A stretch of 64,000 nt of DNA from a virus, in IMG/VR virus record IMGVR_UViG_3300023106_000002, positions 31,560-95,559 of that record. One strand, written 5' to 3'. Both the position numbers and the translations under genes were made by a program. This document shows, piece after piece, positions 38,118-55,828 of this stretch; within the stretch, counting starts at the first letter, position 1, and each line of letters starts with the position of its first letter. The notes under the pieces are model-generated. The model worked only from the letters and a program-made list of their open reading frames with translations. It did no database searches and was not told where the DNA came from.

Positions 38118-38398
38118 GCTAAATAAAGTTTTGTGTATTGGACACAGATTAAAATTCCTTCAACCTTTTTATGTTGAAACTCTTCGGGTAAATTATCTTT
38201 ACATTCCTGTAAAAATGGATTTGCTTTGTTGTTGATTAAATGCACTGGTATTGTGCCAAATGCATAAACTTGATTGATGATTGCTTCATAAGGCATTGGC
38301 ATAGGATCATCAGGTTCTTCATCAAATACTACTAATGATGGCATGATTGTAAAATCAAATATCGGTTTCGTCACTTTTACTGGTATCAATTTCTTCAT
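38114..38398 (-). CDS. Hypothetical protein
   Basis: Probable start MKKLIPVK at 38398. Confidence 0.5.
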   Translation of the reverse strand: MKKLIPVKVTKPIFDFTIMPSLVVFDEEPDDPMPMPYEAIINQVYAFGTIPVHLINNKANPFLQECKDNLPEEFQHKKVEGILICVQYTKLYLA

Positions 38399-40511
38399 GG
38401 TTTTCAATTGCATTAATAATTTTTAATGTTTCTCCTATGTAATGAGGATAATATATAAGTTCTCTGATTTCTTCATCAGGTATCATTTGATTTATTGAAG
38501 TACATAACCAACCTTTTTCGACATTCAAATATCGAATACAGCTAAGTTTTGCATCTCTATCAAGTTCTACTAAATCAAGATCAGGATTAGCATCTAATGC
38601 TTTTTTCTTATAACTATCTAATGTTTTCTGAAGTGGTGGCATTTGTTTGATGAGAGTTACACCAGTTCCATGATAATCGATTAACTTAGTCTCTTTATTA
38701 GGAACAGCTTCACCACTTATCACATAACGATTAATTCTCTGCTGCTCAGATTCGCCAATAATCATTCCTTGCTGGTTCGAGATTCGCTCCAAAAGCTTAT
38801 CACTCTTATTGATTTTTGTCCTTTTACAGAAATCATGATAATCAGTATGACTTCTTATAAACTCTTCAACAGGTTTACCATATACAAAGTAAGCTTCTAA
38901 TGCTTTTGCAATGATTAATGATGAAAAGTCTTTATGTAGTTCAAGTTCTCCTGGCTCTGCTTTATAAATGAATGCATCTCCTTTGCGTTTTACATAACCA
39001 TCAGGTTTTACTGCAATGTAATTGTTAACATTTGCAATAATCATCTTATCATAAAAAGCTTCTTCAAGAATAAGTCCTGTTAAAGCTTCCCATCTCCTGC
39101 ATATACTTCTGAATAAATCTAACTCATCTTTTCTAATTTCAATAGTCATACCATCAGTATTTATCTGTAGCATTCTATGATTAGTAAGTTCTATTGTTAG
39201 AGTTTCAGCAAGCATACATAAAAGTAATTGACCATTGACACATGTTTGTACTACGTATTGAGTATCACATAATGGACTAAATTCACTTCCTCCTTTACCA
39301 TACGTTCCATTACCAGCAAGTTTCAGTGACAGATTCTCAGCAGTTTTCTTTGCATACATTGATCTTTCATCTTTGATTTCAGCATGAACTTCTGAATAAA
39401 CACCTTTTAGATGTTCAGGTTCAAACTTGTAAAGTACTGACATAGAAGGATAATATCCCGCTACATCAATATCAATAATCAAAGTCTTTTCAGTTGGAGT
39501 GTAAACTCCTGAAGTAATTGAACCATGTATTCCACCAACACCAAACTTATATTGAAATCCTTTGTAAATAATATTAAGTGATTGTTCACGTAAAGGAATT
39601 CCTTTCTTACTTGTTTTAATATAAGTATAAGGTACAAGTGGTTGAATAGCTTCCATTGGAAGTCCACCAAATACACCTGCAATTTCCGTGATAACTTTAC
39701 TTTTGAACCAAGATTCAATACGTTTGAAAGGTTCTTCACGAAATGAAATAAATGGTAGAATAATACTACCAATATCAATGCTTTCTCGTTTTGTATTCCT
39801 AACTACTTTACGTGTACCACCTGATTCTTTCTCTACTAAGTCATAGACTAAGTGTTGTCCTCCCTTTGCTATAATCTTACTAATAAAGATATGCTCACCA
39901 ACCTTTACATCATTGAAGTTTGTAAAATCAATACCATATTTAGGAGTGAGTATTTCTCTAAGTTCAATAGCAGGAAGAGTTTTATGAAAGAGTTTTTCAG
40001 TTGCATCACAGTCATTATGACAGTAATCAATAACTTCTAATTGCTGTTCACGAGTAAGAAAGGTTCCAACTGGATGAGGAAGTTCTCGAATATTGTTCAA
40101 TTTTAGATTGAATTCAAGTAACTTTAAGGAAGTCATTTTTGCCTTGTTATCGAAGTGATTAATCTTTAAGAGATCATGCTGCCTTCGTAACGATTCTTTC
40201 TGTTGAAAGAAACCTTTTGAGTTAATTCGTTTGTCACCAAACTTAAATAATGCAGCAGTAACTTTACTACCTCTCAAGTTCATGCATTTTGTAACTAGAT
40301 AACTGATTACTGGATCATCATAAAAGAGATTGTTATACCCTATCATGTTTCCAACTTTATCTCTTAACCATATTACAAATGGTATTCTTTCATCAATAGT
40401 TTCGCTTATTTCAAATTTATAACGCTGTCCTGTAAAGGGGTTCTTTGCACATATCAACCAAAAGTTAGGATAGCTTTCAGTATCATATATGTATGCTGTT
40501 TCCTTATCCAT
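38355..40511 (-). CDS. Family B DNA polymerase with 3'-5' exonuclease
   Basis: Exo YDTE, GYNNLFYD, YCHND; pol DVAGYYPS, LKLAGNGTYGK, INTDG. Confidence 0.93.
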   Translation of the reverse strand: MDKETAYIYDTESYPNFWLICAKNPFTGQRYKFEISETIDERIPFVIWLRDKVGNMIGYNNLFYDDPVISYLVTKCMNLRGSKVTAALFKFGDKRINSKGFFQQKESLRRQHDLLKINHFDNKAKMTSLKLLEFNLKLNNIRELPHPVGTFLTREQQLEVIDYCHNDCDATEKLFHKTLPAIELREILTPKYGIDFTNFNDVKVGEHIFISKIIAKGGQHLVYDLVEKESGGTRKVVRNTKRESIDIGSIILPFISFREEPFKRIESWFKSKVITEIAGVFGGLPMEAIQPLVPYTYIKTSKKGIPLREQSLNIIYKGFQYKFGVGGIHGSITSGVYTPTEKTLIIDIDVAGYYPSMSVLYKFEPEHLKGVYSEVHAEIKDERSMYAKKTAENLSLKLAGNGTYGKGGSEFSPLCDTQYVVQTCVNGQLLLCMLAETLTIELTNHRMLQINTDGMTIEIRKDELDLFRSICRRWEALTGLILEEAFYDKMIIANVNNYIAVKPDGYVKRKGDAFIYKAEPGELELHKDFSSLIIAKALEAYFVYGKPVEEFIRSHTDYHDFCKRTKINKSDKLLERISNQQGMIIGESEQQRINRYVISGEAVPNKETKLIDYHGTGVTLIKQMPPLQKTLDSYKKKALDANPDLDLVELDRDAKLSCIRYLNVEKGWLCTSINQMIPDEEIRELIYYPHYIGETLKIINAIENHEEIDTSKSDETDI

Positions 40512-45213: not shown

Positions 45214-45413
45214 AATAATAAAGGTTTTAAAACGCTGGTTAATCAGTACTCGCAGAGTGATGCTAAATGTTCAGAAAAACATCACTCTTTCGAATACCTT
45301 TGCACTCCTTTCAGAAGTTTTCTTTATGTGTTGTGAGTTCGTTGAGTAATCAATTGATTTGCTATTAACAAATAACCAATAAAAATTAAAGAAACATCTG
45401 TTATCATGCTCCA

Positions 45414-45432
45414 AATTAGTGAGGGTTTTGAG
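45414..45432 (-). promoter_or_regulatory. Repeated early-promoter-like motif, copy 1
   Basis: Minus strand CTCAAAACCCTCACTAATT; identical copies at 51158 and 54730. Confidence 0.7.
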
Positions 45433-46634: not shown

Positions 46635-46678
46635 CTTGAATTTATTTACAAATTTAACACTTTTTACCTTAAAAACAC

Positions 46679-46708
46679 TTGATTATTAAAAATAAAATCG
46701 TATATTTG
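46679..46708 (+). promoter_or_regulatory. Bacteroidota sigma-70 promoter, opposite to surrounding genes
   Basis: TTG (46679-81) - 19 nt - TATATTTG (46701-08), matching the TTG-N19-TAnnTTTG consensus. Confidence 0.75.
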
Positions 46709-46712
46709 ACCA

Positions 46713-46924
46713 TTGCAAAGCAATAAATATCAGCGAAAACTCCATTCTCACGAGATGAGAATCACTCTTTTGCTTCTTTTATCATTTTTCATTAAATTTC
46801 TTCTGAAAATTAACATATACACTTTGGTCGGTGTTTTTACTTTTGAATTTCATTCATTGCATTTTTAAGTTTAAGGGGTTAAACTAGAAAACTGCTTCCT
46901 GTGCAAGGGAAGCAGTTTTTGTTT
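46713..46924 (+). ncRNA. Candidate small regulatory RNA (~210 nt)
   Basis: Host-type promoter upstream, strong terminator downstream, no substantial ORF, internal hairpin ATTCTCA-CGAGA-TGAGAAT. Confidence 0.5.
46888..46924. terminator. Intrinsic terminator (possibly bidirectional)
   Basis: AAAACTGCTTCC/GGAAGCAGTTTT followed by TGTTT. Confidence 0.85.
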
Positions 46925-47126
46925 ATGATAGCATCATCTTCGTGAAGGCTTCTTCAAGTGATGCATATAGGTCTGTATCTTTACCAATAGGTAAATCAGT
47001 TGGTGAAAACCATTTCACTTGTACTGTAATATCATGTCTCTTAACTTCAACACGATGATAGTCTTTACCATCGTGTTTGACTAAGTGATTAGATATTTTC
47101 TTGCTGGTTGAGTTTAATAACTCCAT
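46923..47126 (-). CDS. Hypothetical protein
   Basis: 67 aa. Confidence 0.55.
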   Translation of the reverse strand: MELLNSTSKKISNHLVKHDGKDYHRVEVKRHDITVQVKWFSPTDLPIGKDTDLYASLEEAFTKMMLS

Positions 47127-47427
47127 TTTCTACGTCTTTAAAGTAAAACTTAATTTCACATTTCTTGATCTTACCATTGTCATAGTAAGTACACTTGTAA
47201 GGTTGTTGTACAACTTCTTGATGTTCTCTGTCAGCGAATTCAATATTATTGATTTGAGTAAATAAAGATGCTAATGCCATTTCAGCATGACTTTGAATGT
47301 CATTACCTAATGTAATCAGCATTTCTTCACTAATATCAACTTCCATTGTAGCTTTAAATGATGTACTGAGAACAGTACCATCTTCATTGTATCGAATTGT
47401 AGCGATACCAATTTCTTTCTTTTCCAT
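47089..47427 (-). CDS. Hypothetical protein
   Basis: 112 aa. Confidence 0.6.
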   Translation of the reverse strand: MEKKEIGIATIRYNEDGTVLSTSFKATMEVDISEEMLITLGNDIQSHAEMALASLFTQINNIEFADREHQEVVQQPYKCTYYDNGKIKKCEIKFYFKDVENGVIKLNQQENI

Positions 47428-47436
47428 GATTTTATG

Positions 47437-48180
47437 TTATAATACTCGATACACCATAATCTGTCTGTATCTGTAAACGGGTTTAAATTTGTCGTTGAGT
47501 TCCATGTAATGTCCTATACTTCCTGCTTGATTGTAGAAAATATACTGTCCTTTATGTACAGCTTTACTTAATTGTTCTACAAATAGCTTAGCAAGTTCTT
47601 GTCTTGCCATAGGTTCATACATAAATAATGCATCATAACCCTTCAGGTCATCTTGTTGAATTTTCAACAGATCTTTCAATTTAAGATTAAATGTGCCAGC
47701 ATATTCTGCAATAGATGTGAGAAAGCCTAGTTTAGCATCTTTAACGAAAACTTCTTCATTATCAATACCATCTAATGCAACTGAATATTTATTAAGAAAA
47801 TCAAATCGTTTATCACTTGAAACTACTTGAATAACTTTTCTAACAGCTAACAAGAAAAATCCTGCTCCTGCTCCCATATCTAACATCTTCTTGATTTTAA
47901 AATGTTCAATAAGTTCCACTATGATGTAACTCATTTCAAAGTGTGTTGGGATATAACCCCATTCACTTCCATCTTCTCCCTTTGGTCTACCAACTACATT
48001 ATTGTAATCAGAAGCGTATTTGTTACGAGTAAAGAAGTCATATACACCTTTCATAGCATGTATTTTCTCTGCTATATTAAACATGCTCTTCTTTTGAGTA
48101 TCGTTCAATTCAACAACAGGTTTTAGTGCTTTAAGTTTATCTCTAAAAGTTTTTCTTGGTTTTTTAGTTAATGTTTCCAT
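47437..48180 (-). CDS. Class I SAM-dependent methyltransferase
   Basis: YIPT, MLDMGAGAG (motif I), LDGID, DLL, YDALFMYEP. Confidence 0.85.
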   Translation of the reverse strand: METLTKKPRKTFRDKLKALKPVVELNDTQKKSMFNIAEKIHAMKGVYDFFTRNKYASDYNNVVGRPKGEDGSEWGYIPTHFEMSYIIVELIEHFKIKKMLDMGAGAGFFLLAVRKVIQVVSSDKRFDFLNKYSVALDGIDNEEVFVKDAKLGFLTSIAEYAGTFNLKLKDLLKIQQDDLKGYDALFMYEPMARQELAKLFVEQLSKAVHKGQYIFYNQAGSIGHYMELNDKFKPVYRYRQIMVYRVL

Positions 48181-48182
48181 GA

Positions 48183-49085
48183 TTATGCTGCTTTAAAGTA
48201 ATAAGGTCTTCCATCTTTCATGATAAGTTCATGTCCTGCTGCAATAGCATCTTTTCTGTGCATCGTTGAAAATACACCTTTGTCTACAACTAATGCTGCG
48301 TGCCATGCTGAATGATGAGCATTTGGTGAGTTAATCAGTTTGAATGAATACTTTACACCATTATTAATTGATGGATGCATTGACAATCTGATGTGATCGC
48401 CAAGATTAGCACGAACTAAGCCTGAATATGCTTCATTTCTGAGCATCATTTCACGAGTTAGAATTTTTGCTCTCTTTGCTTGCTGGTTCTTTGAAGGGAA
48501 ATCAAGATATGCAATCTCCTCTTCCATAAAACGCAGCATACCACGATATAATGTATTAACATCAGCATCTAATAAGATTCTACGACTAAGTTCTTCTTCA
48601 GTAATACCAAATTGACTAGTCAATTTACCTTGTAATGTATTAATTGTTGAAGTTCTATCATAGAAATCTCTTAGATTTAAAATTCTTACTGGTGCTGATC
48701 CAATCATATCAGTTGAAATCTCCTGATAGGCATCCACAGTATTTTCACTAACACCAAGCACATCACTAAAGGCAAAGCCATCTGATGCAATGGTAACAAT
48801 GATTCCCGGTTCATATACAGATTTAACTGCAAGATTGAATGCATCGAAATTAGCTAAAGTTGCTTCTTCTGCCATATCAGGTAGAGTTCCAAGTACTTTA
48901 TCACGAGTATTGGTAGATTTCATAGGAAATCCCATGATTGAAAATAAGATAGGTTTGTTCTGAGAAACAAACACGTTAAGTTTGTCTCTCAGTACTGATT
49001 TACCTATCAAATCATATTGGTCTGTTGCTAAAGGGTTCATTCTGAAACCTTCAAAAATCTGAAGTATTAATCCAAGTGTGTCCAT
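48183..49085 (-). CDS. Isocyanide (isonitrile) synthase, Dit1/PvcA/IsnA family
   Basis: GFPMKSTN..KVLGTLPDMAEE, VYEPG...IASDGFAFSD.LGV, RNEAYS, IRLSMHP, SAWH, in the order expected for the DIT1_PvcA family. Confidence 0.9.
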   Translation of the reverse strand: MDTLGLILQIFEGFRMNPLATDQYDLIGKSVLRDKLNVFVSQNKPILFSIMGFPMKSTNTRDKVLGTLPDMAEEATLANFDAFNLAVKSVYEPGIIVTIASDGFAFSDVLGVSENTVDAYQEISTDMIGSAPVRILNLRDFYDRTSTINTLQGKLTSQFGITEEELSRRILLDADVNTLYRGMLRFMEEEIAYLDFPSKNQQAKRAKILTREMMLRNEAYSGLVRANLGDHIRLSMHPSINNGVKYSFKLINSPNAHHSAWHAALVVDKGVFSTMHRKDAIAAGHELIMKDGRPYYFKAA

Positions 49086-49105
49086 GATTTGAATGTGTTT
49101 TTGTT

Positions 49106-49633
49106 TTATTGTGGTTGTCTACATGCTGGGTAAGGACAGTCAACTGATGGTTCATCTTTTACAGCATTTCGACTGTCATATTTTTTAATAGCATCTTCCA
49201 ATCCTTGTAAAGGATTATCTTTAGTAGTATCTTCTTGTTTAACATCAGAATTGATGTTTTCAGGTGCAGTTGCATTCTTAACAGGATGATCAAAAGTAAA
49301 TTGAGCCATTTTCACAGCAACTGCTGATTGAGTTGATTGTTCTCTTCTTTCTTTACGCATGTTTGCAAGAACAGCAAGAAGTTCTATTGCATCATGTGTA
49401 AGAGCAATTGTAGTTCTTGTGATGTTTTTTGGTTCAAAGATTGTTTCGGTAGTTCTACCAATAATCTTTTTCATTCTTCTGCGCATGATGATAATGTAAC
49501 CATCACCTTTTTCTTTGTCCATAAGAGTAATTTCAACTTTGCCTGTTCTACCTTGAATAGCATTATCAAAGTGTCTAACCATAAGAGTTTTACCAATGTT
49601 CGATAACTTTGCATCGTTTTGTTCTGTGTTCAT
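49106..49633 (-). CDS. Hypothetical protein
   Basis: 175 aa, C-terminal CPYPAC. Confidence 0.65.
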   Translation of the reverse strand: MNTEQNDAKLSNIGKTLMVRHFDNAIQGRTGKVEITLMDKEKGDGYIIIMRRRMKKIIGRTTETIFEPKNITRTTIALTHDAIELLAVLANMRKERREQSTQSAVAVKMAQFTFDHPVKNATAPENINSDVKQEDTTKDNPLQGLEDAIKKYDSRNAVKDEPSVDCPYPACRQPQ

Positions 49634-49658
49634 GTGTTTAACTTATTAATGATTAATT

Positions 49659-49690
49659 TAAAAAAAGAGTGCAAGGTTAATTGCACTCTT
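49659..49690 (-). terminator. Intrinsic terminator
   Basis: AAGAGTGCAA/TTGCACTCTT with long U-tract on the minus strand. Confidence 0.75.
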
Positions 49691-49710
49691 ATCTGGCCTT
49701 GTGGTATTTA

Positions 49711-50715
49711 TTACACTTCAGGAAATACAACAGTACCATCTACGATAGCAATGTTATGAAACTGATGAAATGCTTCTTTAGCATCATCATTTAATTTCAA
49801 TAACGTCAATCCCATTCTTAACGGGAACGTATCAAGTAAATGACTTGCTGTTTCTGATGCTATTACAGCATTGTCTTGTACTCTGAAACCATGTGCTTTC
49901 ATTACTGGTGGACCAGTAACTACAATGTAATGATCTCCATACTCAGGTACATTAGTACTTCTTACAAGTACAACATCACCTTTTTGAAGATACATACCAT
50001 CTTTTGAGTTAATGCGTTTAACATCAAAAGGATTCAATGGAAAATGAGCAACTGTGTAAGCATTGTCTCTTCCATCACGAGTATGCTCAGGTAAATAATG
50101 TAACGATACAGCATTGCCAACTGATACAAAGTTATGTACAAGATTGACTCTTGTTACATCAGGCTTTTGCATTTGATACTCAGATACAAATACACCTTTC
50201 TCTTTGATCTCAGTTAATACTGGTCTTACAATGCGATGTTCAAGGTCAACAATACGATAAGTATTTACACGAATGCGTCCTGAAAGAACTTCTTCATGCA
50301 TATAACCATCAGAATGACCATGTACAGGTGATGTAAATCCATCTCCCCATCTCGCAATGACCAATTCTTTTCCTTCTTTCCATGCTGTTTGACCAGCATA
50401 AGAAACTACAGGACTCGGCGCCTCCATTGCAATGATTGTACGATCAAATTCTCCTTTTGCTGGTTCGTTTTCAAGTGTCCAATCATCTTTCTGCAACTGT
50501 TCTGACAAGTGCTGCATAACTTGTTGCGTAACATTAATCTTCTCTTGAAGATATTCATCACCATCTGTAAGTACAGGTAATGATTCAAAGTATTGTTCAT
50601 ATCCTGCTCTGTACATTTTCATGTGTTCAGGTTGTCCAATGTAAGCGATTTTTGCAATGTCTTCTACAGGTGTAGTACTTGCATTAAGATGTGTTGATCT
50701 TTCTAATGTGTCCAT
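49711..50715 (-). CDS. Cysteine-dioxygenase-like (3-His cupin) protein with extra C-terminal domain
   Basis: WGDGFTSPVHGH, VLSGRI...Y, LVHNF, AVSLHY match the thiol-dioxygenase cupin pattern. Confidence 0.8.
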   Translation of the reverse strand: MDTLERSTHLNASTTPVEDIAKIAYIGQPEHMKMYRAGYEQYFESLPVLTDGDEYLQEKINVTQQVMQHLSEQLQKDDWTLENEPAKGEFDRTIIAMEAPSPVVSYAGQTAWKEGKELVIARWGDGFTSPVHGHSDGYMHEEVLSGRIRVNTYRIVDLEHRIVRPVLTEIKEKGVFVSEYQMQKPDVTRVNLVHNFVSVGNAVSLHYLPEHTRDGRDNAYTVAHFPLNPFDVKRINSKDGMYLQKGDVVLVRSTNVPEYGDHYIVVTGPPVMKAHGFRVQDNAVIASETASHLLDTFPLRMGLTLLKLNDDAKEAFHQFHNIAIVDGTVVFPEV

Positions 50716-51124: not shown

Positions 51125-51157
51125 TGGTGTTTTAAATTTAAATTGTTGATAACTCGT

Positions 51158-51176
51158 AATTAGTGAGGGTTTTGAG
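51158..51176 (-). promoter_or_regulatory. Repeated early-promoter-like motif, copy 2
   Basis: CTCAAAACCCTCACTAATT, ~34 nt before ATG 51124. Confidence 0.75.
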
Positions 51177-51189
51177 CAGATTAAAATGT

Positions 51190-51249
51190 AAAATAAAAAG
51201 ATAGACTACACATAAGGAGCAAGTTCTTCAACTGCTCCTTAGTATAGTC
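51190..51249 (-). terminator. Terminator-like hairpin just upstream of the promoter motif
   Basis: TAAGGAGCA/TGCTCCTTA stem with extension, then U-rich run on the minus strand. Confidence 0.6.
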
Positions 51250-51606
51250 ACCTCAAAATAAAGTCAACACAACTTTAATTCTTTAATGTTTTCTCTTGGT
51301 TTTTACAACTGATAGTCAAGTCATATAGCCCTAATAACAAGTAAGGATTAAGCCTTAAATGTCGTAACAGCAATACGCTGATCTATAACTTGATTGAGTG
51401 CGTATCTAAAACTCATCTTCTCTATCAGTTGTCATCAAATCTACTTGTCGTACCTACAGGAGAGAACCAATCCCCTTATAAAACAAGTTGTACTCTTTGA
51501 AAGTACAGAGAAATGATAACTTAAACTACATCAGTCTTGACTGGGATGATGAAACTCCCACCAAATGTTATCGCGACTTACATCAAGACTGATATGTTGT
51601 AGTTAT

Positions 51607-54466: not shown

Positions 54467-54729
54467 TGGAATTAAATTGAGGTTAATAGATGTGATAATT
54501 GGTAATTTGGCTATGAATTGCATGATATTGAAAGTGAGTGAAATAGAGATGTGGTTCAGAGACATGTGTATTGTCTCCTTCACATTCACACTCATGTTCT
54601 CGATCAAAATAAAAACTCCTGAAACATTATGAACATCTTCACAAGCATTGACACTATCTATTCACAATATTATCAGGAGTTTCTCAATAGCTAATAGCAA
54701 CAAGACTTATCAACTCATAGATTGCTAGT

Positions 54730-54748
54730 AATTAGTGAGGGTTTTGAG
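54730..54748 (-). promoter_or_regulatory. Repeated early-promoter-like motif, copy 3
   Basis: CTCAAAACCCTCACTAATT. Confidence 0.75.
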
Positions 54749-55092: not shown

Positions 55093-55130
55093 GATTATAA
55101 GGTATTATAAGTTTGTGGCAATATTGCCAA

Positions 55131-55150
55131 GTATTTGTAAGGGTTTTGAG
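55131..55150 (-). promoter_or_regulatory. Repeated early-promoter-like motif, variant copy 4
   Basis: CTCAAAACCCTTACAAATAC, ~39 nt before ATG 55092. Confidence 0.7.
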
Positions 55151-55402: not shown

Positions 55403-55828
55403 CGTTATTACATGTTATGATACAACACATCTTGAGATATGTATGTTAGATACCAACCAGTCAAGGTAGCAGCAACACAACAAAGATAAGATGTGATGTA
55501 GTCATAAAATAAGCAACACAAGTTCACGAGATAAAATGTACAAAGAACTAGTGAACAAGTGCTGCTGTAACAATCATATATTCCCGCCCTGAATTACGAT
55601 GAAATAAACTTCATGGCGGGGTACTTGGATTGCTTGAGATTAGTACGGGTCTTGACTCAAGGTACTTTACATCCTCACTCTTTTCAAAAAAAATTTTATT
55701 TTATAAAAAATGACACTTAACCTGAGTTCTATCAATCTAAGCCTATCTCGTGAAGTCCCATCATCATTGACTTCAAGCAGTCTACTTATAATCATGTAAA
55801 CAAAGTTCTACATTATGTAACATTTTAC

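Follow-up and report, generated by a model that had tools for sequence, protein, structure and literature searches.

A putative phage accessory cassette built around an IsnA-type isonitrile synthase and usually carrying a cysteine-dioxygenase-like cupin

Isonitriles are rare, strongly metal-binding groups of bacteria, fungi and sponges, and the locus described here raises the question of whether a phage may carry the genes to make one. The DNA analysed (the window) consists of 64,000 nucleotides, bases 31560-95559 of the 95,559-bp IMG/VR virus record IMGVR_UViG_3300023106_000002, and it encodes a homologue of the IsnA/PvcA/Dit1 isonitrile synthases. A first-pass annotation of the window had read this gene, a cupin dioxygenase and an S-adenosylmethionine (SAM) methyltransferase as a candidate natural-product pathway. 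We could confirm what was observed, and its interpretation is partly supported. The cupin protein and the synthase do belong together, the methyltransferase falls out, and two companions of the synthase had been overlooked, namely a small protein, here called Y, and the constant presence of a domain, here called X, at the C-terminus of the cupin protein. The literature searched yielded no paper on an isonitrile synthase of a phage or virus, or on a virus that makes an isonitrile. The coordinates of all features are collected in Table 1.

The synthase was found to match the PF05141 profile (DIT1_PvcA) with an E-value of 1.9e-58 and 198.6 bits, where the cut-off is 26.4, and the match covers positions 3-272 of the 273 in the profile. 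A genome-wide profile search gave 198.8 bits for the same family. On this profile evidence the protein is a bona fide PF05141 member, as had been proposed. Among solved structures, PDB 9DHM and 9DH4 and PvcA (3E59) match the synthase with E-values of 1e-28 to 1e-25 (2e-28 for 9DHM/9DH4 and 2e-25 for 3E59), and a profile of 27 members of the phage clade matches 9DH4 with E 2e-50 and PvcA with 1e-43 over synthase positions 15-300. Both synthase domains of a fungal XanB homologue are 28-29% identical to the phage protein (E 9e-42). The motifs FP-KS-N, KVLG, PD-AE, SDG--F-D, LYR, RLS-HP, K-S and WH are all kept in the window synthase and were observed to be invariant or nearly so in the 27 clade sequences; in the alignments, FP-KS-N, KVLG, PD-AE, SDG--F-D, LYR, RLS-HP and WH are common to PIsnA, PvcA and XanB. 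No sign of decay was seen. Since no paper naming the catalytic residues of IsnA or PIsnA was found, the integrity of the motifs is a conservation argument, by which the synthase looks catalytically intact.

A total of 309 relatives of the synthase were collected, many of them on contigs of 70-170 kb. The closest two are 77% and 72% identical and are found on contigs of 95.5 and 121 kb. A distant PF05141 clade with 38% identity (L008, L030 and L031) was also noticed, which has a cellular-looking context and is found without X, Y or the cupin. L008 and L031 represent a contig binned to a Woesearchaeota metagenome-assembled genome and a near-identical 56-kb metagenome contig, with genes on mixed strands.

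The surroundings of the synthase were compared in 29 distinct, phage-like related loci from viral, genome and metagenome contigs, which were scored by tblastn and domain profiles. Each count given here covers those loci which have room upstream or downstream of the synthase, or which are judgeable, and the flanks of the 77% and 72% identical relatives lie outside this comparison. The order of X-containing gene, synthase and Y gene was observed to be kept in the related loci. Y directly follows the synthase in all 24 loci with downstream room and X directly precedes it in all 21 loci with upstream room, while a cysteine dioxygenase (CDO)-like domain is located ahead of X in 16 of the 20 judgeable loci. 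The constant companions of the synthase are X and Y, not the dioxygenase-like domain. In most other loci the cupin-X gene and the synthase abut, with a small open reading frame (ORF) between them in a few. As a further example, the cupin gene and the synthase of a circularly permuted 70.9-kb contig are located at opposite ends of the contig and are hence adjacent. The cupin protein and the synthase are kept together much more consistently than chance would allow.

The flanking genes of the related loci have almost no family in common, and the cassette therefore seems to move as a unit between otherwise unrelated phages. The cassette proteins of these loci average only 30-52% identity. Mantel tests on the pairwise distances of cupin, synthase and Y gave r of -0.15, 0.11 and 0.34, none of which is significant, and the clade is star-like, with identities of about 30-50%, and as such uninformative in this test.

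Two further families were noticed close to the cassettes. The first is a family of small proteins (83-92 residues) found beside the cassette (L010:2983-3243, L019:2982-3260 and L022:5701-5952), which separates cupin and synthase in two loci and precedes the cupin in the third. The second is a DUF7873 protein (E 1e-33 to 1e-35) located 0.7-3.6 kb downstream of the cassette in two loci that are otherwise unrelated (L002:10517-11326 and L007:7598-8368).

The X domain occurs in several arrangements. It is found alone, without the cupin domain, in L003 and L032, and as a separate 105-residue ORF in L014 (44% identity). In P0114 it forms the N-terminal part of the synthase protein (38% identity, E 9e-19). 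Such extra stand-alone copies of X lie between cupin-X and synthase at L014:2041-2358, L015:749-1120 and L026:1276-1638. Y belongs to a family of 295 representative clusters, which are nearly all stand-alone proteins of 100-135 residues. In L021 a synthase without its approximately 22 C-terminal residues continues in frame into Y, although this is a single case and possibly an assembly error. As far as sequences can tell, the X-synthase and synthase-Y fusions imply a physical association between these proteins. A complex prediction for the synthase and Y gave a score of 0.01, which is not evidence either way. The model of Y (pLDDT 85) has a predicted beta-beta-alpha-alpha-beta-beta fold, and no match above Z 4.5 was found among solved structures. 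Its matches in the ESM Atlas, which are roadblock/LC7 and sensor-like domains with TM of about 0.5, can be taken as leads only. An assignment of Y as a cytochrome c7 (NCBIfam) was dropped, as it scored 17.8 bits where the cut-off is 120.

The cupin part of the two-domain protein is closest to the thiol dioxygenases. PF05995 (CDO_I) is the sole Pfam match of the protein, and it is marginal with 23.0 and 23.9 bits for a cut-off of 23. An AlphaFold model made with 13 homologues has a pLDDT of 91.4, and in structure comparisons with VIA-align and Foldseek its best seven structural neighbours are all thiol dioxygenases, with VIA-align Z from 12.6 to 10.0. These are CDO of B. subtilis (Z 12.6, with 147 of 154 residues aligned at a root-mean-square deviation of 3.2), 3-mercaptopropionate dioxygenase (MDO, 11.9), mercaptosuccinate dioxygenase (11.4), rat CDO (11.2), PCO4 (10.4), ADO (10.3) and ergothioneine dioxygenase (10.0). 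Generic cupins reach 9.5 at most. In structure searches with the complete two-domain model the cupin part prevails over X. SbzM, a cysteine-remodelling enzyme, was also observed among the neighbours. The phage cupin has the fold of this group including its N-terminal helices, and it carries X as an extra domain.

In the profile alignment, H132-x-H134 of the cupin aligns with the iron ligands H86 and H88 of rat CDO, and an A-V-S-L-H motif aligns with CDO S153 and H155. Residues R92, E141, H194 and H206 are invariant in the family. R92 is located in an F-x-R-T-I motif of the first barrel strand and might resemble the carboxylate-binding R60 (Y58-x-R60) of CDO. Equivalents of the CDO Cys93-Tyr157 pair are not present in the profile alignment, where the residue at position 93 is Met or Leu and that at position 157 is Leu or Val. 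An aromatic residue, Y207, is found one position before Tyr157, and the result for this tyrosine depends on the register of a hairpin. We know of no thiol dioxygenase that has an isonitrile synthase as its genomic partner, unlike this phage cupin.

Table 1. Features of the synthase region and repeated intergenic motif (positions are those of the window)
Feature	Position	Strand	Length	Remarks
Repeated intergenic motif, plus-strand core AATTAGTGAGGGTTTTGAG	45405-45432, 51149-51176, 54721-54748, 55123-55150, 55629-55656		19-28 nt	All copies in the same orientation
Y protein	47089..47427	(-)	112 aa	Conserved small synthase partner; next to the synthase in related loci
Class I SAM-methyltransferase-like orphan	47437..48180	(-)	247 aa	Between synthase and Y gene
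Isonitrile synthase homologue (IsnA/PvcA/Dit1 family)	48183..49085	(-)	300 aa	PF05141 match
orf175	49106..49633	(-)		ORF; inserted gene between cupin-X gene and synthase
Terminator-like hairpin	49665..49690	(-)		10-bp stem, 6-nt loop, T-run; between cupin-X gene and orf175
Two-domain protein, thiol-dioxygenase-like cupin and C-terminal X domain	49711..50715	(-)	334 aa	ORF, PF05995, model
X domain	49729..50025	(-)	About 100 residues	Residues 231-329 of the cupin protein; always accompanies the synthase in related loci
Cysteine-dioxygenase-like cupin domain	50047..50610	(-)		Residues 36-223; structural neighbours, invariant columns
Candidate promoter copy, minus-strand core CTCAAAACCCTCACTAATT	51149..51176	(-)		About 25 nt upstream of two small ORFs preceding the cassette

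We consider it probable, with some reserve, that this region is a mobile phage accessory cassette with a core of X, an IsnA-type synthase and Y, to which a CDO-like iron cupin is usually fused before X, and that it works in the following way. The synthase would condense the alpha-amine of an amino acid with ribulose-5-phosphate to form an alpha-isocyano acid, as in its bacterial and fungal relatives, for which formation of such acids by this family is established (PMC11350588). The cupin would serve as a 2-oxoglutarate-independent non-haem iron oxygenase which tailors the substrate or the product oxidatively and so replaces IsnB/PvcB. X and Y may be accessory subunits for substrate delivery, assembly or product handling. 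The absence of a TauD-like gene, noted earlier for the window, was confirmed for the complete 95.6-kb genome, in which a search with PF02668 (TauD, Fe(II)/2-oxoglutarate) gave no match; the control genome of E. coli did match.

The closest parallels are the bacterial vinyl-isonitrile pathways, IsnA/IsnB (rhabduscin), PvcA/PvcB (paerucumarin) and AmbI1-3 (hapalindoles). Like the phage, they have a PF05141 synthase in which the same motifs occur, and the phage enzyme aligns with PvcA and PIsnA over its full length. Their operons are likewise compact, with an iron oxygenase gene beside the synthase. However, the bacterial oxygenase is a TauD-type partner, whereas the phage has the cupin, X and Y instead and its cassette is phage-borne. 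In addition, the identity of the phage synthase to PvcA and PIsnA is low, at about 30%. Fungal isocyanide synthases (ICS) such as Dit1/Dit2, XanB with its fused TauD and the CrmA-type proteins, in which an ICS domain is combined with a nonribosomal peptide synthetase (NRPS)-like part, also combine the synthase domain with various partners, and they can use amino acids other than Tyr and Trp. Their partners in Pfam architectures are P450, TauD or NRPS-like, and X, Y and the CDO-like domain are not among them. The only other known biological route to isonitriles is the Fe(II)/2-oxoglutarate-dependent oxidation of a glycyl adduct by enzymes of the ScoE/Rv0097 type (PMC7949033, PMC12946266). Both the protein families and the chemistry of that route are unrelated to the phage cassette, and the phage genome has no protein of the TauD fold.

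Several points weigh against the cassette working as proposed. The synthase scored 115.6 bits with NF045653, the equivalog model of the PvcA L-tyrosine isonitrile synthase, far under the cut-off of 600 bits, and therefore the substrate of PvcA is not transferable to the phage enzyme. The CDO-like domain is missing in L003, for which the whole 41-kb, 82%-complete record was searched, and in L032, and it is probably absent from L021 and L029 as well. Because of its absence from L003 in particular, the cupin looks like an optional tailoring domain. The first-pass annotation had assigned three iron-binding histidines to the cupin, and of this assignment the CDO fold and H132/H134 stand, but the invariant H194 falls on CDO E143 in the profile alignment instead of on H140, the third ligand. 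If the hairpin of the phage cupin were shorter, the register would be restored, with H194 at H140 and Y207 at Y157. The characterised relatives of the cupin that we know of all oxidise sulfur, not isocyano acids. To our knowledge, canonical bacterial IsnA enzymes also work without X- or Y-like partners, and the obligatory presence of X and Y in the phages therefore hints at a different substrate or reaction. Furthermore, in this phage the cupin gene is parted from the rest of the cassette by the terminator-like hairpin, and the sequencing runs in which the sequence was found are two leaf-litter metagenomes, one the probable source and the other with a small share, with no RNA run among them.

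An explanation closer to the first-pass annotation is that cupin, synthase and methyltransferase form a three-enzyme pathway, with the methyltransferase placing a methyl group on the isonitrile product or on a precursor of it. The spacing that had been pointed out is real. The ATG of the methyltransferase lies 2 nt from the synthase stop codon (48183-48185) and its own end lies 9 nt before the start of Y, by which it is almost certainly co-transcribed with them. It carries a class I motif I (DMGAGAG), its fold and feature neighbours in the ESM Atlas are class I SAM methyltransferases with TM 0.59-0.66, and as read from the sequence it has neither the DPPY/NPPY nor the PCQ motif typical of DNA methyltransferases. 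However, a homologue was found in none of the 29 related loci, a word search among 5.8 billion proteins returned only the protein itself, and its Pfam matches, such as that to Methyltransf_31 with 16 bits where 27 are required, stay below threshold. We therefore regard the three-enzyme pathway as unlikely, and a conserved place of the methyltransferase in it could not be upheld. A phmmer search gave a weak match to a 248-residue ORF of L002, but this is an unrelated GmrSD_N/ParB-like protein.

A homologue of orf175 is likewise found in 0 of the 29 loci, and Pfam, PHROG and NCBIfam gave no family for it. Inserted morons are abundant in the early regions of phages, and the junctions interrupted here seem to tolerate them, as small inserts of other kinds are found there in other cassettes. 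Judging from the locus comparison, the methyltransferase and orf175 with its upstream terminator are insertions specific to this phage which lie outside the cassette core. The terminator that had been reported between cupin and synthase is thus present, but it came with an insertion between genes that otherwise mostly abut. A methylation of the product in this lineage is the most that the methyltransferase may contribute, for which there is no support from conservation. The MDTL/MDTL/METL starts of the three proteins, which had been taken as a shared feature, are also real but do not mark a cluster, as 6 of the 84 ORFs in the window start with M[DE]T.

Just as improbable in our view, although to be taken seriously, is a sulfur route, in which the cupin is a true thiol dioxygenase and the pair uses cysteine or a related thiol amino acid, oxidised before or after isonitrile formation or remodelled in the manner of SbzM, to give a sulfur-containing isonitrile or an N-formyl compound. 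This would fit with the sulfur-oxidising nature of all seven best structural neighbours and with the appearance of SbzM, with PF05995 as the sole Pfam match, and with the possible carboxylate clamp at R92 and the A-V-S-L-H motif. On the other hand, the positions of CDO Cys93 and Tyr157 are changed in the cupin, the PF05995 score is just at the cut-off and some cassettes have no cupin. Cysteine is also not known to us as a substrate of any IsnA-family enzyme.

Less likely still is that the synthase has been retargeted, with X and Y as specificity subunits, to modify an amine on a macromolecule or on a metabolite that is not an amino acid (a protein N-terminus, a nucleotide or a cell-wall precursor), or that it stops at the N-formyl stage as proposed for yeast Dit1. 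The obligatory X and Y of the phage clade, which we do not know from canonical bacterial IsnA enzymes, their fusions to the synthase, the distant 38%-identity clade that does without X, Y and cupin, and the low PvcA equivalog score all point in this direction. Yet every family motif is kept in the synthase, Y lacks the invariant Lys or processed N-terminus by which a substrate could be recognised, and the cassette is not linked to DNA-modification genes. We also know of no precedent for a retargeted isonitrile synthase. Finally, that unrelated morons merely stand side by side can practically be dismissed. It is true that the region consists of many unrelated small ORFs, that the cassette of this phage is interrupted by two foreign genes and a terminator-like hairpin, and that the distance matrices of the three proteins are uncorrelated. 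However, the gene order is repeated in 29 loci whose flanks are unrelated, domain fusions of two kinds occur, and the low average identity of the locus proteins makes one recently spread clone an unlikely basis.

For the accessory cassette that we favour, the position in the genome gives some indication of when it is used. It is located upstream of the replication module, among a series of small genes that all run in one direction. The motif reported earlier at 51158 as a promoter is one of the five copies of the repeat in Table 1, and this repeat may be a promoter used by the phage's own RNA polymerase. Three of these copies cluster at the strand-switch region (54.7-55.7 kb). The next copy downstream of 51149-51176 is at 45405, which would fit one transcription unit of approximately 5.7 kb, possibly attenuated at the hairpin 49690-49665. 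Because of this location and the repeated promoter-like motif, the cassette is probably expressed in early or mid infection. Upstream of the promoter-like motif there is a 480-nt stretch without ORFs (51125-51606) in which no Rfam match and no tRNA were found. It holds a sigma-70-like TTGACT-17-TATACT pair, then a GC-rich hairpin near 51212-51238. A strong terminator-like hairpin with a 14-bp stem was also noticed at 46887-46920 on the (+) strand, in an ORF-poor gap (46635-46922) of the minus-strand block. Scans of the cassette surroundings for Rfam families and tRNAs gave no match.

The record has direct terminal repeats, is rated 100% complete and is a complete phage of lytic type. The window has a G+C content of 32% and a single 40-kb block of minus-strand genes, which runs from about 54 kb to 14.5 kb. 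It encodes a virion structural protein of 3,223 residues (phrog_16227), a protein of 1,603 residues (phrog_14721), a family B DNA polymerase, a primase, helicases and a thymidylate-synthase-like protein. The DNA polymerase is 61% identical to those of the Flavobacterium psychrophilum phages Fpv20/FpV21/FPSV (genus Fipvunavirus), and the host is probably a member of Bacteroidota. In this phage the polymerase, of 718 residues, is encoded by one gene (38355-40511), whereas Fpv20 (NC_031912.1) has two genes with a homing-endonuclease gene between them. The label "crAss-like" is plausible in a loose sense, with regard to the giant virion protein and the genome size. In 50,697 deposited phage genomes, neither blastn nor tblastn found a match to the region or to the synthase, and PHROGs had no family for any of the five proteins of the cassette region.

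Phages with the cassette probably make a reactive metabolite. Such a compound might poison metalloenzymes, capture metal or act against host defence. A bolder idea, which we find doubtful though a little less so than the alternatives discussed above, is that X and Y are specificity subunits which aim the synthase at a novel substrate, such as a sulfur amino acid, on which the thiol-dioxygenase-like domain would act as well, or a macromolecular amine, and that the result would be a new phage isonitrile or isonitrile-derived warhead against host metalloenzymes or defence proteins, or a means of metal capture. The corrected boundaries of the cluster, with the methyltransferase left out and Y and X taken in, tell which genes to express. 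If the proposed cassette is real, it would be a compact and easily expressed system of three to four genes for natural-product chemists, and it would bring new enzymology, with a partner that needs no 2-oxoglutarate and with novel accessory domains. Chemical warfare by small molecules, or the handling of metals, would then join the known activities of phages in early infection.

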